A stretch of 64,000 nucleotides of DNA. Source: an uncultured Acidobacteriota bacterium (GTDB taxonomy: Bacteria > Acidobacteriota > JAAYUB01). Under the pieces are notes generated by a model, which worked only from the letters and a program-made list of their open reading frames with translations, ran no database searches and had not been told where the DNA came from. This document shows positions 1 to 57,290 of this stretch, piece by piece (position 1 is the stretch's first letter; each line of letters opens with the position of its first letter). The position numbers were made by a program, and so were the translations under genes. The DNA lies in the NCBI GenBank assembly GCA_964412195.1, contig CAYPNP010000003.1, positions 160,386 to 224,385 of the forward strand. The letters are read 5' to 3'.

Positions 1-702
1 TCTGTATGATACCGCCGCCACCGGCACAGGGTAGGTACCCCGACCGGCCGGGAGGGGCGCGAAGGATCCGCCGCTGGGATGATGGGAGTCCGCCGGTCAA
101 CTCCGTCTGATTCCGGTCAGCGTCTCGATCTCCTTCAGGCGGGGGAGGAGATGTTTGCCAGGGACGTGGATGGAATTGTGTCTCGCTCCCCCCGATCCCG
201 GCAGCTGGTCCCGCGCGCCCTGCCTGTCGGGGTACCTCCCGCCTGCCGGTGCTGACGCCGTGCTCGCTGAGAGGGCCTGTGCTCGTCATCATGCTCGACG
301 GATGACCGGTGACGGCTCGTGTTCGTCATCGTCATCGTAATCGTGCTCGTGATCGTACTCATGCTCGGCGATGCTCCCTCACCGCGAAGGCACCAGGTCT
401 GCCAAGCAGAATTCAGCACGGATGAACACGGATGCCCAATCCGATGCAGCCGGATCCATTCAATCGTGATTATGTCTGGCAAGAACATGTCCGACTGCCG
501 GTCCGAACCGGGATGAATAGACCGGGTCCGTGTGAATCGGTCCGTTATCCGTGTAGATCCGTGTTGAATCTCTGGTCATCCTTCACTGGAGCCATGTCAT
601 GCCAGGTTTCCCGTGGGTTGGCCTGACGGGAGTTTCCTCCGTCCGGCACGACCGACAGCGCCGGTTTTGGTACAATGATGCCAGTGATTTCATCCCGCGA
701 GG

Positions 703-2317: not shown

Positions 2318-2497
2318 TTTCAAGCTGAACATTGAACATCGAACATTGAACATCGAACATCGAAGGAAAACCCGCGGCAGCAGGGTTTGAACGGACGAAA
2401 ACAGTCTGGAACGGCGGGGTACTTGCTCCAGTCTTCGAATCACTGGATCTACTTCAAAGTTCGATGTTCAATGTTCGATGTTCAATGTTCGCTTTGA
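2318..2497. repeat. inverted pair of CGAACAT heptamer arrays flanking about 90-bp core (MITE-like or hairpin)
   Basis: 2318-2362 aacattgaacatcgaacattgaacatcgaacatcgaa is the reverse complement of 2452-2497 ttcgatgttcaatgttcgatgttcaatgttcg. Confidence 0.7.
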
Positions 2498-2541
2498 CGA
2501 TCTGACTATCCAGCAAAACTCTTCTCTGGGATAATGGCGCC

Positions 2542-3462
2542 ATGGAACTCTACGGCGCCATCGACATCGGGACCAACTCCATCAAGGGTGTGCTGTTGGC
2601 CCGCGACTCCGCCGGCGGCTGGCGGGTGGTGGACGACCGCGTGGAGATCGCCAAGCTGGGGCAGGGGGTCCGGGAGACCGGCTGCCTCCGGGCCGAGGCC
2701 ATGGACCGGGCCGCCGCCGCCGTGGGCCGGCTGGCCGACGTCCTGCGCAGGGCGGGGGCGGGCCGCCTGGTGGCGGTGGGCACCATGGCCCTGCGGAACG
2801 CCGCCAACGCAGGGGAATTTTTAGAGCGGCTCCGAGCGGAATGCGGCCTTGAAGTCGAGGTGGTGTCTGGCGAGGAGGAGGCACGCCTCTCCTTCCTGGG
2901 CGCCGCGGGGGGACGGCCCGGCGCCGGCGGGCCGGTGGCCGTGACGGACATCGGCGGCGGCAGCACCGAGTTGATCCTCGGCCGCGGCGCCGCCCTCGAA
3001 TCGAAGGCGAGCCTGGACCTCGGCGCCCTGCACCTCACCGAGCGGTTCCTGCCCTCGGACCCGCCCGCGGAGGCCGAGGTGGAGGCCGCCCGGGCGCACG
3101 TGGGCGAAGCAGTCGCCGGCTTGCCAGTCCCGCCGGAAAACTCGCTCCTGGTGGCCATCGGCGGCACGGCCACCACCCTGGCGGCGGTCGTCCACCGGCT
3201 GGCCGCGTACGACGCCGCGATCGTCCATGGTACCGTGCTGGCGCGGGCGACGGTCGACGGCCTGATCGAGCGGTTCCGGAGCGTTCCCCTGGCGATGCGG
3301 CGGACCATCCCGGGCCTGCCGCCGGAGCGGGCCGACATCATCCTGGCGGGCAGCCTGATCCTGCGCGGCGTGATGGACCGGGTCGGCGCCGGCGAGGTGA
3401 CGGTCAGCGACTGGGGCCTCCGGCACGGCGTCATCCTCGATCGCTATACCCCTGTCAGTTGA
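2542..3462 (+). CDS. Ppx/GppA-family phosphatase (exopolyphosphatase / pppGpp phosphohydrolase)
   Basis: N-terminal AIDIGTNSIK actin-like ATPase motif of the Ppx/GppA family; 306 aa. Confidence 0.8.
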   Translation: MELYGAIDIGTNSIKGVLLARDSAGGWRVVDDRVEIAKLGQGVRETGCLRAEAMDRAAAAVGRLADVLRRAGAGRLVAVGTMALRNAANAGEFLERLRAECGLEVEVVSGEEEARLSFLGAAGGRPGAGGPVAVTDIGGGSTELILGRGAALESKASLDLGALHLTERFLPSDPPAEAEVEAARAHVGEAVAGLPVPPENSLLVAIGGTATTLAAVVHRLAAYDAAIVHGTVLARATVDGLIERFRSVPLAMRRTIPGLPPERADIILAGSLILRGVMDRVGAGEVTVSDWGLRHGVILDRYTPVS

Positions 3463-3469
3463 GTCGAGG

Positions 3470-3600
3470 CAGATCTCAATTTCCAGAACGCAAACTATTT
3501 GTTATTGGATATTGATTATTTGTTATTTGTTATATCCGAATTGTTTTCCATAGATTGATATAACCAATAACAATTAATCAATAATCATTAACAAATCTTC
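3470..3600. repeat. AT-rich imperfect palindrome (TTGTTAT/ATTGATT repeats) at convergent gene junction; probable bidirectional terminator or MITE-like
   Basis: Arms ttgttattggatattgattatttgttatttgttatat and atataaccaataacaattaatcaataatcattaacaa are near reverse complements; about 25% GC inside a 68% GC genome. Confidence 0.55.
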
Positions 3601-3622
3601 TGCTGATCCCCATTCCCCCGGT

Positions 3623-5530
3623 TCAACCTTTCCCATCCACCCGGGCCTTCCGTTCCTCCAGGTATTCCCAGCGCTCGTACGCGGCGGCCAGTTCCGCTTC
3701 CAGGTCTTGCAGACGGGAGTTGAAGGCGGCGACATCCCGGTTGGCGGTGCGGTACAGACCGGGGTCGACCAAAGCCCGGCAGACGCGCTCCTTCTCCGCT
3801 TCCAGCTCGTGGATCCTGTCCGGCAGGGCTTCCAATTCCCGCTCTTCCTTGTAGCTCATCCTGTTGTCCGGCGGCCGGGATTTGGGAGGCGGTTTTTTCG
3901 CAGGCGGCTTTTCGGCCACGGTTTCGGAAGTGTCCCTCTGACGAAGCCAGTCGTCGTATCCGCCCACGTATTCCTCGATCTTCCCATCCCCGGCAAACAC
4001 CAGGGTGCTGGTCACCACATTGTTCAGGAACGCCCTGTCGTGGCTGACCAGCAGCAGGGTGCCTTCGAATTCGAGGAGCACCTCCTCCAGCAGTTCGAGG
4101 GTTTCGATGTCCAGATCGTTGGTCGGCTCGTCGAGCACCAGCACGTTGGCCGGCTGGGTGAACAGGCGGGCCAACAGCAAGCGGCACCGTTCCCCGCCGG
4201 AGAGGCTCTTCACCTTGGCCCGCGCCTGTTCCGCGGAAAAGAGGAATCGCTGCAGGTAGCCGATCACGTGCTGGCTCACCCCCCGGATCGTCACCGTGTC
4301 GTGGCCGCCGGCCACGTTGTCGAACACGGATTTCTCGCTGTCCAGTTGATTACGCAACTGGTCAAAGTAAAGGACTTCCAGGTTGACTCCATGGCGGACG
4401 CTCCCCTTCTGCGGCGCGAGGTCGCCCAGCAACAGGCGCAGCAGCGTGGTTTTTCCGCAGCCGTTGGGCCCGATGATGCCCACCCGGTCCCGGCGCAGGA
4501 TGGTGGCGGAAAAATCGCGGATCATGGGCTTGTCGGCGTACTGGTAGGAAATGTGCTCCGCCTCGATGACCAGCTTGCCGGATCGCTGTCCGGACTGCAT
4601 GGCCATCCTGACTTGGCCGGGACGCTCCTGCCGCTGCCGCCGCTGTTCCCTCATCTTCATCAGGGCCCGGACGCGGCCCTCGTTCCGGGTGCGGCGGGCC
4701 TTGATGCCCTGGCGGATCCATTCCTCCTCGATGGCCAGCTTCTTGTCGAAGAGCCGGTTCTGGCTCTCTTCCGCGGCCAGGCTTTCCTCCTTGCGCCGGA
4801 GGAAGGTGGCGTAATCGCACGGCCAGTCGAACAGCCGGCCCCGGTCGATTTCCACGATCCGGCTGGCCAGCTTCTGCACGAGCACCCGGTCGTGGGTCAC
4901 CATCACGAGGGTGCCGCCGTATTCCGCCAGGAAGCTCTCCAGCCAGGCGATTGCGTCAATGTCCAGGTGGTTGGTGGGTTCGTCGAGCAGGAGGATGTCC
5001 GGCCCTGAAACCAGGGCTTGGGCCAGCAGGGTGCGACGCTTCAGCCCGGTGGACAGGGTCGTGAATTCCGTGTCGGCCGGCAGCGTCATGCGGGCGATGA
5101 CCGTGTCGACGCGGCGGTGGATTTCCCACCCTTGCTCCGCGTCCAGCTGATGGCTGAGGCGTTCCAGGCGGGCCATCAGCTTAAGTTCATCCCCGCGGTG
5201 CTCCGCCAGCAGGGCGCTGGTCTGATGGTAATCGGCCAGGAGCCGGCCTTTGGCGGCGAGCCCGGAGGTGACGATGTCGAAGACAGTGCCGGCGGTGCCG
5301 GTGGGGATCTCCTGGTCCAGGCGGGCGGTGGTGACACCCTGCCCGCGGCTGACGCTGCCGCTGTCCGGGACGATCTCCCCGTGGATCAGCTTCAACAGCG
5401 TGGTCTTGCCGCTGCCGTTGCGCCCCAGCAAGCAGACCCGCTCGTGGCGTTCGATGTGCATTTGGACGTGGTCCAGCAGCAGATGGCCGCCGTAGCCGAT
5501 GCACGCGTCTTTCACGCTGATGAGCGCCAT
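3623..5530 (-). CDS. ABC-F family ATPase (Uup/EttA-like; two ABC cassettes plus C-terminal coiled coil)
   Basis: Two Walker A motifs (GRNGSGKTTLL, GPNGCGKTTLL) and two LSGGE signatures; basic coiled-coil C-terminus; start MALISVKD chosen downstream of the ORF-track start. Confidence 0.85.
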   Translation of the reverse strand: MALISVKDACIGYGGHLLLDHVQMHIERHERVCLLGRNGSGKTTLLKLIHGEIVPDSGSVSRGQGVTTARLDQEIPTGTAGTVFDIVTSGLAAKGRLLADYHQTSALLAEHRGDELKLMARLERLSHQLDAEQGWEIHRRVDTVIARMTLPADTEFTTLSTGLKRRTLLAQALVSGPDILLLDEPTNHLDIDAIAWLESFLAEYGGTLVMVTHDRVLVQKLASRIVEIDRGRLFDWPCDYATFLRRKEESLAAEESQNRLFDKKLAIEEEWIRQGIKARRTRNEGRVRALMKMREQRRQRQERPGQVRMAMQSGQRSGKLVIEAEHISYQYADKPMIRDFSATILRRDRVGIIGPNGCGKTTLLRLLLGDLAPQKGSVRHGVNLEVLYFDQLRNQLDSEKSVFDNVAGGHDTVTIRGVSQHVIGYLQRFLFSAEQARAKVKSLSGGERCRLLLARLFTQPANVLVLDEPTNDLDIETLELLEEVLLEFEGTLLLVSHDRAFLNNVVTSTLVFAGDGKIEEYVGGYDDWLRQRDTSETVAEKPPAKKPPPKSRPPDNRMSYKEERELEALPDRIHELEAEKERVCRALVDPGLYRTANRDVAAFNSRLQDLEAELAAAYERWEYLEERKARVDGKG

Positions 5531-6057
5531 CCTGGGTGCGTCCTTCCTGGTTGCTTCCGCCGGAGAGTTGTCCGGCTCGTCCCACCGGATCCTCCCCGGA
5601 TCGGCGTTCCCGGACAAGATAATGCATTCCCACCCCGGCGCCAACGGAAAAACAAAAGGCCGGGCCTCCTCCGCCGGAAATCGTTGTCTCCGCGGAGCCG
5701 GTGTCGGGATCAGACGGAGTTGTCCGGCCCGCTCCCGCCCTCGAGGCGACTCCAGCCTTGCGCCCCTCCCGGCCGGTCGGGGTACCTCCCGTGTGCCGGG
5801 GGCGGCGTTGTCGCCTTCGACGGAAATGGCGCCCGCGTCCGGGATTGACTCTGCGATCTCTACGTCTCTGCGTGAATATACTTCGGGGCTCGAAGCCGGG
5901 GGCTTGGGACTCGGCAGACGTTGACAAACAGTAGTGGGGTCGAGACCCGAGCACCGAATCCCGAGACCCGATTACGAGCACGATAACGATTACGAGCACG
6001 AGCACGAGGAGGATCGGTGGATTTCTTTTTTCGAGGGAGCTGGACGGGGAAAAAAAT

Positions 6058-6110
6058 AGCGGCCGGCTTTTCTATCCCCCCTATAGCATAGAAAGGCCGG
6101 CCGCCTTGAG
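6058..6110 (-). terminator. rho-independent terminator (17-bp perfect stem plus T-run) on minus strand
   Basis: GCGGCCGGCTTTTCTAT...ATAGAAAGGCCGGCCGC inverted repeat; minus-strand reading is followed by TTTTTTTCCCC. Confidence 0.5.
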
Positions 6111-6397
6111 AGTTGGGAGAATAATGGTACGCTATCATTTTTTCGGAGCGGGCCGGTCCTGGCAAGCGACAAAAAGCGACAATATGCGACACGGGGCGAA
6201 ACAGCCTGATATCAAATCAGATAGTGACTTGAAAAACCCGCCGAAATATCGCCGGCGGAATTGATTTTTTCAGTCCAGCAGGCCAATGGACGACCGCTTT
6301 GTTGGACGAGGTTCGCCCCCGATGAACAATTGGGGGATCCAAAGATGTTTCCAAGGGAAATTTGGGATTGCTTCCGCCGATCCACCGACTCACCTAT

Positions 6398-7315
6398 TCA
6401 CCGATTCACCGACAACATCTCCCGCAGCGCCGGCTCCAGCTCCGGCCAGCGGAAGGCGTAGCCGGATTCCAGCAGGCGGCGGGGGCGGACATGCGCCCCG
6501 CCCAGCAGGGCCTCGTCGGCCATCTCGCCGAACAGGAGCCGCAGGGCGAAGGCGGGCACCGGCAGGGCCGCCGGCCGGCGCAGCACCCGGGCGAGGGTCC
6601 GGGTCCATTTGGTGTTGTCGGGGATTTCCGGCGCCACGGCGTTGACCGGTCCGTCCATCCCTTCCTGGCGGATCAAGTGTAGCACGATGCGCGGGATTTC
6701 CTCGAGCGCGATCCAGGGGACGGGCTGTCGGCCGTCGCCGATCCGCCCGCCCAGCCCCAGGCGGAAGACCGGCAGCAGGCGTGCCAGCGCGCCGCCGGCC
6801 GGACTCAGCACCATGCCGAAGCGCAGGTGAATTACCCGGATACCTGCGTCCCGGGCCGGATCGGCGGCGGTTTCCCAGGCGCGGCAGACGCGGGACAGGA
6901 ATCCCTCGCCGGGACGGCTGCCCTCGTCGACAGGCTCCTCCGGCGGGCGGCTGCCATAATAGCCGACGGCGGAGGCGGTCAGGAACAGGCGCGGCGGTTC
7001 CCGGAGCCGGAGCAGTGCCTGGGTGAGGGTCTGGGTGCCGGCGACGCGGCTGTGGAGGATCTCGTCCTTGTACCGCGCGCTCCAGCGGCGGCCGGCGATG
7101 CCGGCGCCGGCGAGGTGGATCACCACGTCGGCACCTTCCAACCGGTCGGGCTCCAGCCGGCCCTGGCCGGGGTCCCATGGGATCTCGTCCTGGGCGGCGG
7201 TCTCGGCGGGGCGGCGCACCAGCTTCACGCAGTGGATAGCTGGATCGAGGCCCGGCAGTTCCCGGACGAGGCAGGAGCCGATCAGGCCGGACGCGCCCGA
7301 AATCACGATCCGCAT
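6398..7315 (-). CDS. TIGR01777/YfcH-family NAD-dependent epimerase/dehydratase-fold protein (DUF1731 C-terminus)
   Basis: MRIVISGASGLIGSCL Rossmann motif; YfcH-like length and C-terminal region. Confidence 0.75.
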   Translation of the reverse strand: MRIVISGASGLIGSCLVRELPGLDPAIHCVKLVRRPAETAAQDEIPWDPGQGRLEPDRLEGADVVIHLAGAGIAGRRWSARYKDEILHSRVAGTQTLTQALLRLREPPRLFLTASAVGYYGSRPPEEPVDEGSRPGEGFLSRVCRAWETAADPARDAGIRVIHLRFGMVLSPAGGALARLLPVFRLGLGGRIGDGRQPVPWIALEEIPRIVLHLIRQEGMDGPVNAVAPEIPDNTKWTRTLARVLRRPAALPVPAFALRLLFGEMADEALLGGAHVRPRRLLESGYAFRWPELEPALREMLSVNR

Positions 7316-9035: not shown

Positions 9036-9581
9036 TTATGCCATCGCCGTGCCGCCGTCAAATCCCGTGCGCTCCTGCTCCCGGAACCAGGCGGCGGGAT
9101 CGGCCAGGAAGGCCTTCATCTCGGACAGGGCGGTGTGATGGCCCGTCTCTTCCTCGATCATCCGCTTGATGAATCCCTTTTCCACCTCCTCGGTGGCGGC
9201 CTTCAGCTGGTCCTCGTAGAAGCGGACCGAATTGAACTCGAAGGTGATGCCCACGTCGAGGGCCTCGAGGTCGCCGGTGCCGGCCTGGATGTTGTGGCCC
9301 TGGGCCGCGGCCAGGTCGCGGAACACCTTGCCGAGGTCGGCGTGGCCTTCGCCGAAGCTCTTCCACTCCTCGGACCAGGTGTGCTGGGTGTTCAGCTGCT
9401 CGTAGATCTTCATAATCCGCTGGACGTGGATGTCCTCGTCCTTCTTCAACATGGTGAATATCTTCACCCCGAGCTGGTTCTTGCAGGTGGTGATGGCCTT
9501 CTCGTAAAACGCCTTGCCCTTCTCCTCCATCTCGAGGGCGGTGCTCAGCATGGCCAGGGCGCGGTTGAAATGATGCGTCAT
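9036..9581 (-). CDS. rubrerythrin-family ferritin-like diiron protein (erythrin domain only), paralog D
   Basis: Two ExxH pairs (EEKGKAFY/DEDIH and EFNSVRFY/EETGHH) give a four-helix-bundle diiron signature. Confidence 0.7.
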   Translation of the reverse strand: MTHHFNRALAMLSTALEMEEKGKAFYEKAITTCKNQLGVKIFTMLKKDEDIHVQRIMKIYEQLNTQHTWSEEWKSFGEGHADLGKVFRDLAAAQGHNIQAGTGDLEALDVGITFEFNSVRFYEDQLKAATEEVEKGFIKRMIEEETGHHTALSEMKAFLADPAAWFREQERTGFDGGTAMA

Positions 9582-9593
9582 GGGATGACCTCC

Positions 9594-10094
9594 TTATGGT
9601 TTTTCCAGTTTCATCAACTCTTCGATCAGGGTGGTGATGTGGGACATCTCCTCCTGGATGATCTTGTCGACTTTGCCTCGGCCCCGGTCGACGGGGACCA
9701 TCTCCTTGATCCCGACATAGAAGGCGATGGACTCCTTCTCCAGGCCGATGGCCGTCTCGAGGATCTGGGCGAGGGATGTGCCGCGCGAGATCGTCTTGCC
9801 GGGGTCCTTGTCCGCGCGGAAGACGTGCTTGTCCACCCAGGCGCGGAGATACCTCAGCGCTTCCTGCCCGGGGTCGTTCAGCGTCTTGAACATGGCGTCG
9901 CCGATGAGGGACTTCCGGAGCGCCTGGAAGGTCATCTCGTGGACGTCCTCCATCGCGGCGAGCTTCTGCAGCAACTCGTTGGCCTGCGCCCCGACGGACT
10001 GGGCGGCGGCGGCCCGGTAGAACTTCGCGCCGTTGCGCTCGAATTGCTCGGCCATTTCAAAGATCTCGTCGGCATTCAGCAAACCGCTCATCAT
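9594..10094 (-). CDS. rubrerythrin-family ferritin-like diiron protein, paralog C
   Basis: ExxH pairs (ERNGAKFY/MEDVHE, LEKESIAFY/EEMSH); start MMSGLL chosen instead of the long N-terminal extension in the ORF track. Confidence 0.7.
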   Translation of the reverse strand: MMSGLLNADEIFEMAEQFERNGAKFYRAAAAQSVGAQANELLQKLAAMEDVHEMTFQALRKSLIGDAMFKTLNDPGQEALRYLRAWVDKHVFRADKDPGKTISRGTSLAQILETAIGLEKESIAFYVGIKEMVPVDRGRGKVDKIIQEEMSHITTLIEELMKLEKP

Positions 10095-11219: not shown

Positions 11220-11460
11220 TGCGGGCCGCGGCGTGCCCGGTAATTGATGCCCAATGACCGATGACCGGTGAACGATGACCGGCGACGGGCCATGCCGACT
11301 GCGAAATGGCATGCCTGCTTCATCGATATCGGAGTCGGTTTTCGCAGTCGATTCCAAGATCGGTTCCTGACGGCGATACCGATGCCTCCGGTCCCGAGCC
11401 CCCAGACCCGAGCCCCCAGATCCGATGTCCGACATCCGAATTCCGATGTCCGCACCGGTT
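11220..11460. repeat. intergenic heptamer arrays (CCGGTGA/CCGATGA family and CCGATGT/CCGAAGT family)
   Basis: ccaatgaccgatgaccggtgaacgatgaccggcgacggg and cccagatccgatgtccgacatccgaattccgatgtccg. Confidence 0.7.
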
Positions 11461-11505
11461 GCGGCGGAGCGGGGAATCCGCTACCATGGGGGCGGGAGCG
11501 GCACG

Positions 11506-12789
11506 ATGGAACACGACGAGATCCTGCACTGGCTGACAGAGACCGGCGAAGCGGCGCTGGAGCAGCTCTGGCGCCGGGCCGACGAAGTCCGGCGCCGGCA
11601 CGTCGGCGACGCGGTCCACCTGCGCGGGCTGGTGGAGTTCTCCAACCACTGCGCCCGGCAGTGCGGGTACTGCGGCATCCGGGCCGGCAACACCCGGCTG
11701 GCGCGCTACCGGATGAGCGCCGACGAGATCCTGGAGTGCGCCCGGCTGGCCGCCCGGCTGGGCTACGGCACGGTCGTCCTGCAGTCCGGCGAGGACCCCG
11801 GCACCCGGCGCGCCTGGATGGCGGACGTGGTCCGGCGGATCCGCGCGGAAACGGGGCTGGCGGTGACGCTCAGCCTGGGTGAGCGCAGCGACGCCGACCT
11901 GCGGGCGTGGCGCGAGGCCGGCGCCGGCCGGTACCTCCTGCGGTTCGAGACCTCCAACCCGGTTCTCTTCCGGAAGATCCACCCGCCCCGGCGCGGCCGC
12001 GGGAGCGACCGGATCGCCCTGCTGCGTCGGTTGCGAGGCCTCGGCTACGAGGTCGGCAGCGGGGCCATGATCGGTATCCCCGGCCAGACGTACGGTGACC
12101 TCGCCCGGGACCTCGAGCTGTTCAGGGAGCTGGACCTGGACATGATCGGAGTCGGGCCGTTCCTCCCTCATCCTGCTACGCCTCTGGGTCAACCAGAGGA
12201 CGCGGGGACGGGGGGACGGGGAGACGGGGGGACGAGCCGGATCGAACATCGAACATCGAACATTGAACATCGAACATCGAACTCAATCCGCGATCCGCAC
12301 TCCGCAAACCGGGAACTCACCACAAAGGCACAAAGAACACAAAGACAAGATTGGGATTCCAATTCGAAATCCGCGATCCGCAATCCGAGATCCGATGTCC
12401 GAGATCCGATGTCCGAAGATCGCACTCCGCATTCCGCACTCCGCACTCCGCATGATTCCGAACAGGTTCCCAACTCGGAATTGATGACCTACAAGGTGGT
12501 GGCGCTGGCCCGGCTGATCTGTCCGGACGCCAACATCCCCAGCACCACGGCGCTGGCCACGGTCAACCGGGAGTCCGGACGCGAGCTGGGTCTGCAGCGG
12601 GGCGCCAATGTCGTCATGCCCAACCTGACGCCGCCGCGCTACCGGGCCGGTTACGAAATCTACCCGGCCAAGGCCTGCCTCCAGGAAACGCCGGAGCAAT
12701 GCCACGGCTGCCTGCTGGCGCGCATCGCGTCCATCGGCCGGACCGTGGGCGAGGGGCCGGGGGAGTCTCCCCGATTCAGGAAGCGGTGA
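11506..12789 (+). CDS. radical SAM protein of the HydE/BioB/ThiH family carrying an in-frame insertion of about 97 codons of heptamer-repeat origin (function may be disrupted)
   Basis: EFSNHCARQCGYCGIR CX3CX2C radical SAM motif; HydE-like C-terminus ICPDANIPSTTALAT...GANVVMPNLTP; start MEHDEIL chosen because the first 27 codons of the ORF lie in repeat DNA. Confidence 0.65.
   Translation: MEHDEILHWLTETGEAALEQLWRRADEVRRRHVGDAVHLRGLVEFSNHCARQCGYCGIRAGNTRLARYRMSADEILECARLAARLGYGTVVLQSGEDPGTRRAWMADVVRRIRAETGLAVTLSLGERSDADLRAWREAGAGRYLLRFETSNPVLFRKIHPPRRGRGSDRIALLRRLRGLGYEVGSGAMIGIPGQTYGDLARDLELFRELDLDMIGVGPFLPHPATPLGQPEDAGTGGRGDGGTSRIEHRTSNIEHRTSNSIRDPHSANRELTTKAQRTQRQDWDSNSKSAIRNPRSDVRDPMSEDRTPHSALRTPHDSEQVPNSELMTYKVVALARLICPDANIPSTTALATVNRESGRELGLQRGANVVMPNLTPPRYRAGYEIYPAKACLQETPEQCHGCLLARIASIGRTVGEGPGESPRFRKR
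12190..12480. repeat. intragenic repeat module: CGAACAT, CCGAGAT/CCGATGT, CACAAAG and CACTCCG heptamer arrays inserted in frame in the radical SAM gene
   Basis: atcgaacatcgaacatcgaacattgaacatcgaacatcgaac translates as IEHRTSNIEHRTSN; ccgagatccgatgtccgagatccgatgtccga; cgcactccgcattccgcactccgcactccgca. Confidence 0.8.
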
Positions 12790-23423: not shown

Positions 23424-23539
23424 GACCGGAAGTTTCTTCTCCTCTTCGGCTCCCGCGCCTCCCGGGGGGCACGACAAAGGCGGGATTATACGCCTCGTTT
23501 TCCAAAAATCAAGTAGGAGGATTGGCATGAATTATGACC

Positions 23540-23930
23540 GGTGAGGGGTGACGGGTGACGGGTGACCGATAACCGGTGCCGTCGCTGTTCGTGCTCGTAA
23601 TCGTAATCGAAACAATGAATTACACACAGAATCGCAGATTCCGCGGCGTTTTCATGAGCAATGCGTTGCCACAAGCAAGCGGGAAGTACCCTGCCGGTCG
23701 GGGTACCTCCATCCTGCCGGTTTTGAGGTCGTGCCCGTTGAGCGGGATCGTTCTGATGGTCGTGTACGCAGCTGGATCTCGGGTCTCGGGACTCGGGGCT
23801 TGGAATCAGGGCTCCGGATCCAGCCCCAAGCCCCCGGTCTCCTGTACTGAGCTCCGAGCCCCGAGCCCCGAGCCTCCAGCCTCGAACCCCGAGTCCCCAA
23901 ACCCGAGCCTCGTGGTAGAATACGCCGGCC
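23540..23930. repeat. composite intergenic repeat region: CCGGTGA array, CGTAATC array, TCGGGGTACCTCC core and CCCGAGC array
   Basis: gtgacgggtgacgggtgaccgataaccggtg; gtgctcgtaatcgtaatcg; 23698-23710 tcggggtacctcc; ccgagccccgagccccgagcc. Confidence 0.75.
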
Positions 23931-28714: not shown

Positions 28715-28900
28715 TTGCGAATTGCGAATTGCGAATTGAGTCCGTGCTTACTCGAAAATAGAAACTTCCGATCGTACTCGTCGATCGTAATCGTGCTCGT
28801 AATCGTAATCGTAATCGCAACAATCAATTACACGCAGAGACGCAGAGTCCGCAGAGACAATCCCTAACGCGGATGAACACGGATTCCCGCCGATCCGGCC
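28715..28900. repeat. composite repeat: GCGAATT array, CGTAATC array, CGCAGAG array
   Basis: ttgcgaattgcgaattgcgaattg; cgtgctcgtaatcgtaatcgtaatcg; cacgcagagacgcagagtccgcagagac; homologous to the module at 23580-23650. Confidence 0.75.
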
Positions 28901-41570: not shown

Positions 41571-42548
41571 TCAGGGGACGCAGCCGACCAGGGACAGGTT
41601 GGCGGTGGAGTTGGTGCCGCCGCCCAGGTAGCAGAGGGTGAAATTTCCGTAACCGGAATTGGGCCGGTAGAGGTACCAATCCTCCCCTGTCCCGGAACCG
41701 GCGCTCAGCCGGGAATAATCGCCAATGATCTGTTTCGACGTCGAATCGACGGTGAGATAGGCTCCCATCGCTTCCCTGGTGACCCCTGCGTTTCCTGAAT
41801 TGCACGAGGCGGTGACCCTGGAGTTTGTCAGAGTGACGACGGCAGTAGAATCCGCCGCGTCAGCCTCCATGTAGATCCCCGCCGTCGTGGTGCTGGTATC
41901 GCTCGGGGCCCACTGCTGGGTTGCCACGATCTGGGTGTTGTATAGTTTCAGGTCGACCACGCCGACGGAGAAGATTCCCGCTCCGAAAGAAACACTCTGT
42001 TCCATCCGGATGGAGCAGTCCCGCAGCTCGGAAAAGTAGCAGCCGTCGTTGTAGATCGCCGCGGAAAAATTCACCCCGCCGTGCCCATGGTTGAGTTGGA
42101 GGCTCTCGATAGCGCCGCACCAGGTTCCGCTCAGCACCACGAGGGCGCCATAGGGAGGTGCTGCCTCCCCTCCGGTACGATAGAAGACTGTGTTGGTTGG
42201 ACCGTACCCGCGCAGGGTGGTATAGCTGGGTAGCGTGATGGGCCGGGTCAGCGTGTACGAGCCGGGCGCCACGAGGATCACGAAGCGGTTGACGTTTGTT
42301 GGAAACTGGGTGGCCACCCAGTCCGCGGCGTCGGCGGGATCGGTGAAATCGCCGCCCTGCTTCGCTACCACAACGATGCTCTCCAGGTTGAATTCGGAGG
42401 CGTCGAGATTGCCGGCCAGGATGTTGGCCAGGCAGACGCTGTCGGCCGCGTTCACCGCCCGGTCGGCGTTGACGTCGGCCCGGTTGCCGGCCGCGGCCGG
42501 GCCGGCGCACAGCATGATCACCGCGATCAGGGTCATAGCGTTTTTCAT
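41571..42548 (-). CDS. secreted right-handed beta-helix-like protein with N-terminal dockerin-like Ca-binding repeat, paralog 1
   Basis: Signal peptide; ADVNADRAVNAADSVCLANILAGNLD dockerin/EF-hand-like repeat; Thr/Ser/Gly/Asn-rich beta-helix-like body. Confidence 0.55.
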   Translation of the reverse strand: MKNAMTLIAVIMLCAGPAAAGNRADVNADRAVNAADSVCLANILAGNLDASEFNLESIVVVAKQGGDFTDPADAADWVATQFPTNVNRFVILVAPGSYTLTRPITLPSYTTLRGYGPTNTVFYRTGGEAAPPYGALVVLSGTWCGAIESLQLNHGHGGVNFSAAIYNDGCYFSELRDCSIRMEQSVSFGAGIFSVGVVDLKLYNTQIVATQQWAPSDTSTTTAGIYMEADAADSTAVVTLTNSRVTASCNSGNAGVTREAMGAYLTVDSTSKQIIGDYSRLSAGSGTGEDWYLYRPNSGYGNFTLCYLGGGTNSTANLSLVGCVP

Positions 42549-42882: not shown

Positions 42883-43863
42883 TCAGGGTATGTTGCACAT
42901 GATCCGCGTTATTCCTTCTTCGAAATTTGTACAGTTGAGGAGATAACAGTAAGCCAGCCAAGCAGATCCGTCCTCATCCCGATAGAGATAGAATGCATCG
43001 CTTGTGAGGCGGGCCTGGGACCAGATAAATGAATATCTGGCGAGCAGACTTTCATCGACTCCATCAACGTTTAAGACAACTCCATAGGCGTACTTGTGGA
43101 GTTCAACAGTACTGCTCATGTTATGTGTCCTGATTTCCGAGTAGAACAACCGGACTTGCGCACCATGATATGCACCCTGAGCCTCCAGATAAACGCCCGC
43201 CACCGAATTATCGAGATCCTCCGGGGCGTCACTGCCCCCGGCATAGATGTAAGATCCGTTAATATCGATGTAACTCGTTCCCAATGAGTATATTGCAGCC
43301 CCGAAAGTGACGGAGCTGGATAAGGAGACGTCGCAATTCTCGATGCGGACAGTCGAGCTCAAAACATACACGGCCGCCGTGTTGGTCGTCCCTCCGGAGT
43401 CTTTTTGCAAGCTGAGATCCTCGATCGCGCTGTCGGTGGTGCTGTTCAACACGACGATGGCTCCAAAGGGCGGGCTCGGCGCGCCCCCGGTACGGATGAT
43501 GACCGTGTTCTTTCTCCCGTATCCCCGCAAGGTGGTGTAGCTCGGAAGCCAGACGGCCCGGGTCAGCAAGTATCCGCCGGGCGCCACAAGGATAACGAAG
43601 CGATGGGTGGCGGAGGGGGACTGCGCCGCCACCCAGTCGGCGGCGTCGGCGGGATTGGTGAAGTCGCCGCCCTGGGGCGCGACGACCACGACGTTCTCGA
43701 GGTTGAACTCGGAGGCGTCGAGGTTGCCGGCCAGGATGTTGGCGAGGCAGACGCTGTCGGCGGCGTTTACGGCCCGGTCGGCGTTGACGTCGGCCCGGTT
43801 GCCCGCCGCCGCCGGGCAGACGCAGAGCGGCAGCAAGGCGAGCAGGAACAGTGCATTTTTCAT
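42883..43863 (-). CDS. secreted beta-helix-like protein with N-terminal dockerin-like repeat, paralog 2
   Basis: Same N-terminal module; about 95% nucleotide identity to paralog 1 over about 110 bp; RBS AGGAGC; the ORF-track start at 43983 is rejected. Confidence 0.55.
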   Translation of the reverse strand: MKNALFLLALLPLCVCPAAAGNRADVNADRAVNAADSVCLANILAGNLDASEFNLENVVVVAPQGGDFTNPADAADWVAAQSPSATHRFVILVAPGGYLLTRAVWLPSYTTLRGYGRKNTVIIRTGGAPSPPFGAIVVLNSTTDSAIEDLSLQKDSGGTTNTAAVYVLSSTVRIENCDVSLSSSVTFGAAIYSLGTSYIDINGSYIYAGGSDAPEDLDNSVAGVYLEAQGAYHGAQVRLFYSEIRTHNMSSTVELHKYAYGVVLNVDGVDESLLARYSFIWSQARLTSDAFYLYRDEDGSAWLAYCYLLNCTNFEEGITRIMCNIP

Positions 43864-44165
43864 AGGGTGCTCCTTGACAGCCCGATGACCCCATTGCCGG
43901 GACCGGAAGTTGCCGGACCCGCAAGAGGTGGGTAGATATGGAAAACTTGGTTCCATTGTGGCCCCGTGGAGCGGCGATTGCAACAGGGGATAATCACAGA
44001 TTCTCAGGGAGGGATCAAAGGTGGCGGGACGCGGGGGATATGATCTTCAGGAGAAATGGAAACCCGTACCGGGGCGGGCCGGCCCGGACTACGGGAAGGT
44101 TGGATTCGGTGAACCGGCGGGGCTGTTGTATAATCGAAACGTTTTGATCCTGCGCGGGATGCCGG

Positions 44166-50792: not shown

Positions 50793-51448
50793 TGCGCAGG
50801 AAGACTCTTACCCTATGGCGGACGGTGTGGCTGGCGGCCCTGCTGGCGGCGGGCGGTGGCGCGGCGGGCGCGGCCGGGCTGTCGCTGCGGGACCGGGTCG
50901 TGGCCGACGTGGCGGGGGAGCCCGTCACCCTCCGCCAGGTGCTCATCCTGGCCAGCCTGGAAGCCGGCCGGAAGGTCGACCCGTCGGAAGGGGGGCTCGT
51001 GGCGGCCGCGGTCCAGCGGGAGATCACCCAGGTCATCATCATGCGGGACATCGCCCGGAATCCGTCCTACGAGGAGGAGAAACCCGACGAGGCCGCGATG
51101 CGGCAAGCCCTCGAGCAGAAGTGCGGCGGGCCGGAGGCATTGCGCCGGCTGCAGGAGGAGCTCCAGCTGAAAGACGAGACGCTCGAGAGCTTCCTGCAGC
51201 GGCAGGCCCTGGCGGTCGCCTTTGTCCGGCTGCATTTCAATCCGTTCGTCTATGTGTCCGAGGAGGAGGCCCGGAAATACTATGCGGAGGTGTTCCTGCC
51301 CCGCCTCGGCGCCGGCGCCGCGCCGCCGGACTTTGAGAGCGTGCAGGCGAAAATCGTGGAGATCCTGCAGCAGCGCAAGATCAACGCCGAGTTCGACCAG
51401 TGGCTGGAGCGGCAGAGGAAGGAACTTCGAGTCAAGATCATTGAATGA
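50792..51448 (+). CDS. periplasmic protein downstream of bamA (SurA-N/Skp-like chaperone?)
   Basis: ATGA overlap with the bamA stop; signal peptide; helical; position equivalent to skp in Omp85 operons. Confidence 0.45.
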   Translation: MRRKTLTLWRTVWLAALLAAGGGAAGAAGLSLRDRVVADVAGEPVTLRQVLILASLEAGRKVDPSEGGLVAAAVQREITQVIIMRDIARNPSYEEEKPDEAAMRQALEQKCGGPEALRRLQEELQLKDETLESFLQRQALAVAFVRLHFNPFVYVSEEEARKYYAEVFLPRLGAGAAPPDFESVQAKIVEILQQRKINAEFDQWLERQRKELRVKIIE

Positions 51449-51560
51449 TTGCGAATTTCGAATTGCGAATTGCGGATTGTGGATTGCGGATTGCGGATTT
51501 TAAATTTCAAATCCTCAAACTCTTTTTCTCTGAATCCACCCCGTCCACCCGTCCACCCCG
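51449..51560. repeat. GCGAATT/GCGGATT heptamer array plus CCACCCG array
   Basis: tgcgaatttcgaattgcgaattgcggattgtggattgcggattgcggatt; ccaccccgtccacccgtccaccccgtccactctgtccacccggtcc. Confidence 0.75.
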
Positions 51561-55439: not shown

Positions 55440-55630
55440 CCATTCAACGCAGATCCACGCTGATCTATTATGATTAATTAGGATCATTTAAAAGGTCTGG
55501 ATCATAAATGATCTTAAAAAGTCTGCGTCCATCTGCGTCGAATTCCCCTTTGCGTCCTTCGCGCCTTTGCGGTTCGATTCGAAATTCGCAATTCGCAATC
55601 CGCAATCCGCAATCCGCAATCCGCAATCCC
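55440..55630 (-). mobile_element. composite MITE-like dispersed element, copy 2 (inverted relative to copy 1)
   Basis: ttcaacgcagatccacgctgatctattatgattaattaggatcatttaaaaggtctggatcataaatgatcttaaaaagtctgcgtccatctgcgtcgaat followed by cgcaatccgcaatccgcaatccgcaatcc. Confidence 0.75.
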
Positions 55631-55633
55631 CAA

Positions 55634-56785
55634 TCAGAGGGAGCGCTCTAAAATCTCTGCCAATTCAGCCGGGGTCAGCGCCACCGGATTGCCCTGCATG
55701 CTGCTGGCCACCCGGGCGCGGTCCACCAGCGTGGGGATGTCGGTGGCGGTGACTCCGTAGGAGCGCAGGGGCGGGATCCGCAGGTCCCGGCACAGGCCGT
55801 CCACCCAGGCGATGGCCTTGGCGGCGCCGGGCGCCTGGCCGGTCAGGAGCCGGCCGAGCGAATCCATCCGGCGCAAGGCGTCGCTGCCGGGATCCCGCTC
55901 CCGCAGCGCCCGGTGGTTGGCTTCCAGCACCCGCGGCAGCAGCCGGGCGCACGCGGCGCCGTGGGGCGCCGGAAACATGCCGCCGAGGGGCGCCGCCAGG
56001 CCGTGCACCGCCCCCAGCCGGGCGTTGGCCAGGGCCATCCCGCCCTCGAGGCTCGCCAGGGAGAGGTCCTCGCGGGCGGCCGCGTCGTAACCGTCGAGGC
56101 AGGCGCGGCGCAGGCTGCGGGACACCCGGGGGATGCCGTCGCGGCACAGCCCGTCGACGAGCGGATTGGGGCGGTTGCAGAGGAACGGCTCCACCAGTTG
56201 AGTCAGGGCGTCTAGGCCGGTGCTGGCGGTGATCTCCGGGGGCAGGCCGTAGGTCAGTTCGGGGTCCACCAGGGCCACCCGGGGCAGCATCAGCGGGCTG
56301 CGCAGGCTGACCTTGACTTTGTGCTCCGGCGAGGCAAGCACGGCGTTGCGGGTGGCTTCCGATCCGGTGCCAGCGGTGGTCGGGACGGCAATCAGGGGAA
56401 CGGATGGCTTGACCAGCGGCCGGCCCTGGCCGACGACTTCGAGATACTCGAGCGGATCGCCGCCGTTGGCCAGCAGGGCCGCGACCGCTTTGGCCGTGTC
56501 CAGCGCGCTGCCGCCGCCGAAGCCGATGACCAGGTCGGTCCCTTCCGCGTCGGCCTGCGCCAGCGCCGTCCGGACCGTGTTCACCGACGGCTCGCCGGCG
56601 GACGAGAACACGGCGGCGGGCAGGCCGGCCTCCCGGAGCAGGGCCAGGAGCCGGCCGGCCCGGTCCGGCGAGGCGCCCGTGACCACCAGCGGCTTCCGCC
56701 CGAGGGAAGCGGCCAGCGGCCCGATTTCCTTCAAAGAGCCGGCCCCGAACAGGATCCGTTGCGCGGTGGCGAATTCGAATGGCAT
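55634..56785 (-). CDS. iron-containing (group III) alcohol dehydrogenase
   Basis: GGGSALDTAK NAD-binding motif; conserved His metal ligands; 383 aa. Confidence 0.85.
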   Translation of the reverse strand: MPFEFATAQRILFGAGSLKEIGPLAASLGRKPLVVTGASPDRAGRLLALLREAGLPAAVFSSAGEPSVNTVRTALAQADAEGTDLVIGFGGGSALDTAKAVAALLANGGDPLEYLEVVGQGRPLVKPSVPLIAVPTTAGTGSEATRNAVLASPEHKVKVSLRSPLMLPRVALVDPELTYGLPPEITASTGLDALTQLVEPFLCNRPNPLVDGLCRDGIPRVSRSLRRACLDGYDAAAREDLSLASLEGGMALANARLGAVHGLAAPLGGMFPAPHGAACARLLPRVLEANHRALRERDPGSDALRRMDSLGRLLTGQAPGAAKAIAWVDGLCRDLRIPPLRSYGVTATDIPTLVDRARVASSMQGNPVALTPAELAEILERSL

Positions 56786-57099: not shown

Positions 57100-57290
57100 C
57101 CTCCTCGGACCGGTGACGGATGACCGGTGACCGATCATGCTCACTCAAAAATAGAGAGCTTTCAACCAGCTTCGTGCTCGTGCTCGTATGGTACTCGTAA
57201 TCGTACTCGGGCCCGACGATCTGATCGATGACCGTTGACCGGTCACCCGTCATCCGTCATCGGTCATCTGTCACCGGTCCGGTTTCCCCA
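57100..57290. repeat. CCGGTGA/CCGATGA arrays (inverted pair) flanking a CGTGCTC/CGTAATC array
   Basis: ggtgacggatgaccggtgaccgatc ... cgtgctcgtgctcgtatggtactcgtaatcgtactcg ... gaccggtcacccgtcatccgtcatcggtcatctgtcaccggtcc. Confidence 0.75.

Follow-up and report, generated by a model that had tools for sequence, protein, structure and literature searches.

The 13-mer loci and the palindromic element

The DNA analysed here (the window, 64 kb, from a MAG with an NCBI contig of 314 kb) has about 65% G+C and is ordinary chromosome: it encodes RelA/SpoT, BamA, TamB, Lgt, uup/ABC-F and rubrerythrins, as well as a UvrA that was assigned by eye. The 13-mer TCGGGGTACCTCC is found exactly at 227-239, 5777-5789 and 23698-23710, always on the forward strand. 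No match arose in 100 dinucleotide-preserving shuffles (0 expected vs. 3 exact copies observed), which confirms the view of the preliminary description that its presence at three loci is non-random. A fourth copy, TCGGGGTACCTAC, which has one mismatch and lies on the reverse strand at 31-43, had been overlooked. All four copies are followed on the 3' side by TGCCGG at a constant spacing of 4 nt and preceded by C(C)KGCC(K)G, giving the common frame C(C)KGCCKG-TCGGGGTACCTMC-NNNN-TGCCGG. The similarity between the loci reaches far past the 13-mer itself: window 8-115 (reverse strand) and 5705-5812 (forward strand) are 78% identical over 108 nt, and the segments 218-275, 5768-5825 and 23689-23746 form a 58-nt family. 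Together with the fixed TGCCGG spacing, these matches bear out the earlier claim of conserved flanks.

The 13-mer is embedded in an arm of ~45 nt with the order CGCGCCCCTCCCKGCCGG-TCGGGGTACCTCC-NNNN-TGCCGGTGCTGAC, and each arm contains two CCTCCC..TGCCGG sub-repeats and the invariant GCCGGTCGGGGTACCT. At window 14-271, two inverted arms close an imperfect palindrome of ~240-260 nt; as a pattern, the ends of the element are GTCAGCACCGG...GGAGGTACCCCGACCGGCAGGGAGGGGCGCG. The 13-mer is the best-conserved part of the inverted ends of an element and no free-standing site. Its location within inverted repeats is consistent with the possibility, raised earlier, that it is bound by a protein or takes part in a hairpin. 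The copies in the window are as follows:

14..271, forward strand: full-length palindromic element (RNA fold, profile search and half-element alignment)
14-61: left arm of the full element, with the reverse-complement core at 31-43
about 100-107 and about 168-178: interior of the full element, ACTCCGTC and GGATGGAATTG, respectively, mutually pairing
212-256: right arm of the full element, with the 13-mer at 227-239, TGCCGG at 244-249 and the terminus TGCTGAC at 250-256
257-271: short extension of the full element, GCCGTGCTCGCTGAG
5705..5823, forward strand: copy B, a solo half-element (alignment and profile search)
5712-5722: interior motif of copy B, AGACGGAGTTG
5760-5789: arm of copy B, GCGCCCCTCCCGGCCGG and the 13-mer, followed by CGTG, TGCCGG (5794-5799) and the extension
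23689..23746, forward strand: copy D, a terminal fragment consisting of CCCTGCCGG, the 13-mer, ATCC, TGCCGG, TTTTGAG and GTCGTGCCCGTTGAGCGGG

As a single strand, the full copy folds into one rod (-143.9 kcal/mol, z -4.7, RNA fold vs. shuffles), and its interior is symmetric, ACTCCGTC pairing with GGATGGAAT. Its sequence, including the left flank, is also present in two independent Logan assemblies (L042 and L043); Logan assemblies independently reproduce window copies A/C and D, and copy D is identical in Logan contig L001. Copy B comprises exactly one half of the element: it matches the reverse complement of window 8-115 at 78% identity and stops at the position that corresponds to the centre of the palindrome. 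Copy D, which is 83% identical to window 218-275, is made up only of an arm and an extension of ~16 nt (RYCGTGCYC...), and the sequence upstream of it bears no resemblance to the element.

An alignment of seven half-elements (the known set is about 7, from about 3 lineages) shows the element to be an inverted dimer of a ~115-nt unit, the two halves of which have diverged. Conserved in this unit are the blocks GGAYGGARTTG, CGCGCCCCTCCCKGCCGGTCGGGGTACCTCC and TGCCGG. The alignment columns are 64% identical on average, but the 13-mer and the bases around it are invariant, and conservation is far higher in the arms than in the interior, the pattern expected of transposase-binding ends. The right end carries the conserved ~16-nt extension, so that the termini are asymmetric and the exact ends uncertain.

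The element is not coding, because the copies share no open reading frame and the indels between them, a 5-nt deletion in the right arm and a 30-40-nt indel at the centre, are not multiples of three. A known RNA of Rfam 15 was rejected, since the whole window gave no match at gathering thresholds; in E-value mode, positions 1-700 and 5500-6400 gave only miRNA-precursor hairpin matches of about 20 bits, on both strands. A scan of the window found no tRNA or tmRNA. On these results, both a known RNA and a coding sequence are rejected. An intrinsic terminator was also rejected, as neither arm is followed by a T-run and the genes on the two sides of the window copy are transcribed divergently. Reading the arm as a sigma-54 or sigma-70 promoter was dismissed by eye, there being no TGGCAC-N5-TTGC.

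Copies in related contigs and the occupancy of orthologous sites

A pattern of 19 specified bases was searched for in 241 million metagenome records and in 185,579 GTDB species representatives. Three of the metagenome records (L018, L026 and L027) are true relatives. The species representatives gave 10 single matches in unrelated taxa, all of them chance, so that the lineage is without representation among them. The one match in IMG/VR, inside a coding region, was again due to chance, and blastn with the L018 element found no match among PLSDB plasmids. The element family is rare and lineage-restricted. The nearest named proteins belong to Aminicenantes/Acidobacteria MAGs, at 59-69% identity.

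L018 and L026 carry the full palindrome with perfect 31-bp inverted arms, located between a sulfatase gene and a sigma-54 activator gene at a locus unrelated to those of the window. In L018 the arms reach about 45 nt with an internal 4-nt mismatch, while the arms of the window copy are imperfect, and the element folds as one rod with a z of -9.1. Its size is 234 nt, compared to about 258 nt in the window, both below ~600 bp. The L027 copy is interrupted by the contig end and lies upstream of an unrelated gene, which by eye looks PhzF-like. Short-read assemblies are broken by the element: L026 ends in an arm and L027 begins inside the element. With the three window loci and these two loci in other contigs, copies are found at unrelated intergenic sites.

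A 10-bp direct repeat, ATCTTGCGCG, flanks the 234-nt element of L018 on both sides, at 11554-11563 and 11798-11807; an equally long shared word occurred in 3 of 5000 shuffles of the two 60-nt flanks. The repeat encloses the palindrome alone and leaves the neighbouring array outside. The full copy in the window (14-271) has no recognisable flanking duplication, and a target duplication is visible at one insertion only, that of L018, and L049 shares it in a degenerate state.

Singlets occur alongside inverted doublets, and the elements are intergenic and hairpin-forming, features that recall a REP/REPIN-type repeat mobilised by a RAYT (an IS200/IS605-like Y1 transposase), with the solo arms as REP singlets and the palindrome as a REPIN doublet. 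We regard this origin as highly improbable. Four single arms folded as DNA gave z values of -0.9 to +0.8 vs. shuffles, with inconsistent structures, and a REP-like unit was rejected because single arms fold no better than shuffles. Arms of 45 nt that lie about 150 nt apart are also much larger than REPINs, and the scanned window ORFs contain no Y1_Tnp match. The 10-bp flanking duplication in L018 is a further objection, as Y1 transposition is not known to make a target duplication.

At two of the three window loci, close relatives lack the element at the orthologous site. Upstream of uup/ABC-F, copy B is absent from four contigs (L032-L035, Uup 82-86% identical). The uup spacers of these contigs and of the window have in common a terminator-like hairpin, GTGTCGC repeats and a GGAATGCATTATCTTGTCCGGG motif; between these landmarks each of the four contigs has different arrays, and none has copy B. 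The sequence GGGAATGCATTATC near copy B was considered as the second half of a palindrome and rejected, being a conserved uup upstream motif present in all relatives. In the GSDH/nitroreductase spacer, the palindrome is absent from L038-L040 (97% identical protein) and L041 (88%), all of which keep the CGTAATC/GATGACCGGTGAC arrays and a TTACACGCAGAGACGC module; in the window genome (L042) it has a CTCGAAAATCGAG motif on one side and the array on the other. The spacer at the L018 locus is short in L044, L048 and L050 (82-83% identical) and contains neither palindrome nor array. All of these ‘empty’ sites are too diverged to separate precise insertion from loss.

The contig L049 (81% identical protein) shares the L018 flanks, with 85.5% identity over 400 aligned columns, and has suffered a clean 169-nt deletion by which one arm and the interior are gone and a solo arm is left. 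This solo arm parallels window copies B and D in a decay series. Both direct repeats of L018 are kept in L049 in diverged, degenerate form. The insertion is shared by the two contigs and so is old; because of this it does not demonstrate recent mobility.

Could the arms be cis-regulatory sites selected by the host? The element would then be the operator of a regulator, or a structured or anti-Shine-Dalgarno RNA, and the neighbouring genes would be affected through its arms (CCCCUCCC, UACCUCC) or through the GGAGG complements of these. The CCUCC motifs of the arms do resemble the anti-Shine-Dalgarno sequence of 16S rRNA, and the element folds significantly better than shuffles. In addition, the 13-mer and its flanks are unchanged in all arms of three lineages while the interior diverges, and the four arms that lie by a gene start (the right arm in the window, copy D, the left arm of L018 and L027) all face the gene, by our reading. 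However, distances of about 100 to as much as 450 nt separate the element from the start codons, copy B has the antisense orientation relative to uup, and the neighbours (nitroreductase, ABC-F, RNA methyltransferase, sigma-54 activator and the gene beside L027) are functionally unrelated. The same genes do without the element in close relatives. Alignment folding, based on two sequences only, the sole full copies, revealed no compensatory changes, no Rfam family matched, and promoter and terminator scans returned nothing specific to the element. Taken together, we consider a regulatory role selected by the host to be unlikely.

The spacers that were compared contain other conserved segments. 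The sequence ACCATTATTCTCCCAACTCTCAAGGCGGCCGGCCTTTCTATGCTATAGGGGGGATAGAAAAGCCGGCCGCTATTTTT (6044-6130, reverse strand) is almost identical in all relatives (L032 9085-9165, L033 300-380, L034 1-90 and L035 960-1040), the rest of the spacer being unalignable. It consists of a short single-stranded leader, a strong hairpin and a T-run, has no real Rfam match, and may represent either a small RNA or a conserved terminator that follows the epimerase gene; it is preceded by decamer repeats, GTGTCGCATTTTGTCGC (6164-6191). Short motifs conserved in all relatives precede uup (GGGAATGCATTATCTTGTCCGGG, 5590-5625, reverse strand) and the nitroreductase gene (TTTTGGTACAATG..CCAGTGATTT, 661-700), and these are probably real promoters or leaders within hypervariable spacers.

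Heptamer arrays and a second modular repeat family

CGTAATC/CGTGCTC arrays are found near the 13-mer loci at 323-367, 5969-6008 (reverse strand) and 23589-23609, and CCCGAGC arrays at 5941-5971 and 23849-23909. The arrays that had been reported close to the 13-mer are thus present, those of the CGTAATC/CGTGCTC type 90-190 nt from each of the three loci and those of the CCCGAGC type at two. The modules without the core, which contain AATTACAC and AAAATAGA and lie at 28715-28900 and 57100-57290, are real as well. The CGTAATC arrays form part of a second family (family 2), which has the architecture CTCGAAAATAGA-(TCGTRMTCG)n-TTACACGCAGAG and is mostly without the 13-mer; the palindrome is found within or beside its copies. 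With its spacer, and with TTACACGCAGAGRCGC as the 3' module, it can be written CTCGAAAATAGA-N10-25-(TCGTRMTCG)n-TTACACGCAGAGRCGC, and the longer form of its modules is CTTACTCGAAAATAGA-N10-25-(TCGTRMTCG)n-AACAATCAATTACACGCAGAGRCGCAGAG, with TCGTAA/TCGTGC as the array units. In the window it is represented by:

275..370, forward strand: family-2 array of TCGTCA/TCGTAA/TCGTGC units with GATGACCGGTGAC embedded, separate from the palindrome
5849..6035, reverse strand: family-2 copy beside copy B, with CTCGAAAAAAGA at 6035-6024, a TCGTGC/TCGTAA array at 6008-5969, GGGCTCG/CCCGAGC arrays and then ATTCACGCAGAGACGTAGAGATCGCAGAG at 5877-5849
23535..23645, forward strand: family-2 copy beside copy D, with a GGTGACG array, CGTGCTCGTAATCGTAATCG and AAACAATGAATTACACACAGAATCGCAGAT
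28745..28860, forward strand: most complete family-2 copy, with CTTACTCGAAAATAGAAAC, a (TCGTAA/TCGTGC) array and CAACAATCAATTACACGCAGAGACGCAGAGTCCGCAGAG, without the 13-mer
57139..57215, forward strand: partial family-2 copy, with CTCAAAAATAGAGAG and a TCGTGC/TCGTAC array, without the 13-mer

The partial copy at 57139-57215 is flanked by inverted GGTGACC arrays, and the module at 28745-28860 has a near-identical counterpart at a non-orthologous site, L049 12000-12060. Outside the window, family-2 copies are found in L018, L027 (1068-1140), L038 (twice, at 9540-9700 and at about 7422 on the reverse strand), L041 (twice, at 6680-6810 and at about 4480 on the reverse strand) and L049. The unique modules are near-identical between non-orthologous loci, and at least eight places in the window and the related contigs have family 2 without the 13-mer. 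Conserved unique end modules, a variable tandem array and many loci mark family 2 as a mosaic repeat.

The preliminary description had counted five copies of one composite element in 64 kb. Profile searches of the window with nhmmer recovered four arms at three loci and no further copies, and the element profile had no match at the core-less loci 28715-28900 and 57100-57290; the count of five had conflated two families. The earlier interpretation is therefore partly supported: the 13-mer is the conserved core of a dispersed repeat, but the union of arrays and core in one composite element was not borne out.

The association between the two is nevertheless real. Only five loci in the window have CGTAATC arrays, and all three 13-mer loci are among them (roughly p = 1e-3, a hypergeometric estimate that assumes about 45 spacers); the copy of L018 and L049 is also 25 nt from a family-2 module. 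If the palindrome were an optional module of a single BIME/BOX-like mosaic with the CGTAATC arrays, AAAATAGA and ACACGCAGAG, the composite would spread together, and a CGTAATC-type array and an AAAATAG-like motif do occur within about 30-190 nt at the three window loci and in L018/L049. The L018 genome is otherwise array-poor, and L044 and L050 are without both palindrome and array at the L018 locus, as joint spreading would have it. We find such a common origin distinctly unlikely, however, given the copies of family 2 that have no 13-mer, the orthologous arrays of L038-L041 that persist where the palindrome is absent, and the L018 direct repeat, which surrounds the palindrome only. Moreover, the order and orientation of palindrome and array are different at every locus: at window 14-271 the palindrome lies between an AAAAT motif and the array, in L018 it lies 5' of the AAAAT motif, and copies B and D are about 50 nt 3' of a ACACGCAGAG module in opposite orientations. 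Because the order is variable, arrays occur without the palindrome and the L018 duplication excludes the array, we read the association as an insertion preference or as a shared tolerance of certain spacers. Arrays and palindrome are accordingly classed as separate families.

The arrays are a general property of this DNA. TRF detected about 25 array-bearing loci of period 6-9 in the 64 kb, in almost every spacer, and the spacers of the relative L032 are filled with arrays in the same manner. Arrays of 6-8 nt with many different units occupy nearly every intergenic spacer of the window (for example 2320-2372/2445-2497, 21093-21151/21187-21245, 38709-38759/38841-38891 and 8942-8979/8997-9021). 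By reading, most units contain a single CpG (CGAACAT, CGGACAT, CGGATTG, CGAGCCC, CGTAATC, CGCACTC), and arrays are frequently paired with their own reverse-complement array 35-500 nt away. Array content differs even between genomes with 97% identical neighbouring proteins. An inverted pair of CACGGAT-type repeats and their inverse (ATCCGTG) at 415-450 and 520-570, upstream of the nitroreductase gene, is present in L041 (6940-7050, 88% identical protein) and absent from L038 (97%). On a larger scale, inverted ATTGCGR/YCGCAAT arrays at 51446-51505 and 55577-55636, 83% complementary over 60 nt and 4.07 kb apart, bracket three genes, which encode a BON-domain protein, an alpha-galactosidase and a thioredoxin-like protein.

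Arrays also occur inside a gene. The heptamer/octamer arrays GGACGGGG, ATCGAAC, CGAGATC and CGCACTC at 12190-12460 are in-frame and stop-free within the radical-SAM gene 11425-12789 (forward strand), where they encode an additional low-complexity loop, about 85 residues long, between ...PHPATPLG and ELMTYKVVALARL.... In L032, the orthologous gene (2432-3643, reverse strand) carries at this position a different insertion, one of about 60 residues (2770-2946). An excerpt of PMC9879509 describes tandem repeats that create disordered regions in Borg elements, of which these in-frame arrays are reminiscent. Elsewhere in the window, a 300-nt direct repeat with 74% identity (42105-42404 and 43420-43719) lies in adjacent reverse-strand ORFs (41571-42548 and 42883-43983) that have no Pfam match and are probably tandem paralogues.

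Origin of the element and comparison with known systems

With moderate confidence, we favour a MITE-like non-autonomous transposable element that has the 13-mer in its terminal inverted repeats. The element is small and non-coding, has terminal inverted repeats, and exists as dispersed copies whose insertion is polymorphic among relatives. A transposase acting in trans, with its gene elsewhere in the genome, would bind the arms, probably at their tandem CCTCCC..TGCCGG sub-repeats and invariant core, and the element would insert into intergenic DNA and make a target duplication of ~10 bp. The element seems to insert preferentially within or beside the CTCGAAAATAGA-(CGTAATC)n modular repeats. 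Decay by central deletion would follow from the instability of long palindromes: internal deletion may have produced the half-element (copy B), the solo arm (L049) and the end fragment (copy D). Effects on neighbouring genes, for example through a hairpin in the transcript, would be secondary. A Pfam scan of about 37 window ORFs revealed no transposase, integrase or RAYT gene, and the precomputed Pfam tags of a Logan contig cover about ten further genes at 13.9-23.4 kb. About 390 kb of related loci contain no larger element with the same ends.

The nearness to the arrays could also be read in terms of another function: instead of being a selfish MITE, the palindrome would serve in a lineage-specific system by which heptamer arrays are built, targeted or remodelled. 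Its hairpin could be, for example, a landing or priming site for an array-generating or array-targeting enzyme, and the constant adjacency to CTCGAAAATAGA-(CGTAATC)n modules would then be mechanistic. We hold this to be very unlikely.

On the MITE-like interpretation, the 13-mer loci should be annotated as copies or remnants of one small palindromic repeat rather than as regulatory sites, and the arrays handled as a family of their own. Should mobility be confirmed, the element would represent a MITE family of an uncultured and poorly known lineage, notable for its apparent preference for another repeat family and for the clear decay series from palindrome to solo arm. The array-filled context, with fast-evolving 6-8-nt arrays in nearly every spacer, is more unusual than the 13-mer.

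For comparison we use the generally known features of MITEs, REP/REPIN/BIME and BOX sequences. Bacterial MITEs (e.g. Correia of Neisseria, Nezha, Chunjie) are the closest known kind. Like them, the element is 100-300 nt long and non-coding, with long terminal inverted repeats and the potential to form a hairpin over its whole length; it is intergenic and dispersed, present or absent among close relatives, accompanied by truncated derivatives, and flanked by a direct repeat at the best-preserved copy. In contrast to MITEs, it has asymmetric termini, one of which carries a 16-nt extension, and it is an inverted dimer of a ~115-nt unit, where MITEs have a unique core between short inverted repeats. 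It also differs in the very few copies so far, in the apparent preference for sites in or near another repeat family, in a target duplication seen at one insertion and in a parent insertion sequence or transposase not found in the scanned sequence.

With the REP/REPIN/BIME sequences of Enterobacteria and Pseudomonas the element shares the singlet and inverted-doublet forms, the intergenic location and the mosaic with other short motifs. Unlike in these, the arms are not self-complementary, the element is far larger, there is a flanking duplication, and the scanned ORFs include no RAYT. The BOX element of Streptococcus pneumoniae, boxA-(boxB)n-boxC, resembles family 2 and not the palindrome: both have a unique 5' module, variable tandem units and a unique 3' module, and both are dispersed and intergenic. 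The tandem unit of family 2 measures 6-7 nt, however, vs. 45 nt in BOX, and its end modules give no sign of pairing.

Among repeats of similar period, the cyanobacterial STRR are intergenic heptamer arrays. The TAACTGA repeats of Beggiatoaceae are intergenic heptamer arrays according to an excerpt of PMC4679880, and an excerpt of PMC4692102 mentions heptameric repeats in Xanthomonas and Nostoc. As in those systems, short arrays with a period of about 7 fill the intergenic regions across the lineage, but here the units are many with none dominant, and arrays are often paired in inverted orientation. Being non-repetitive, the 13-mer element is distinct from such arrays. It is most likely a new family, in an uncultured lineage, of a known kind, the MITEs.
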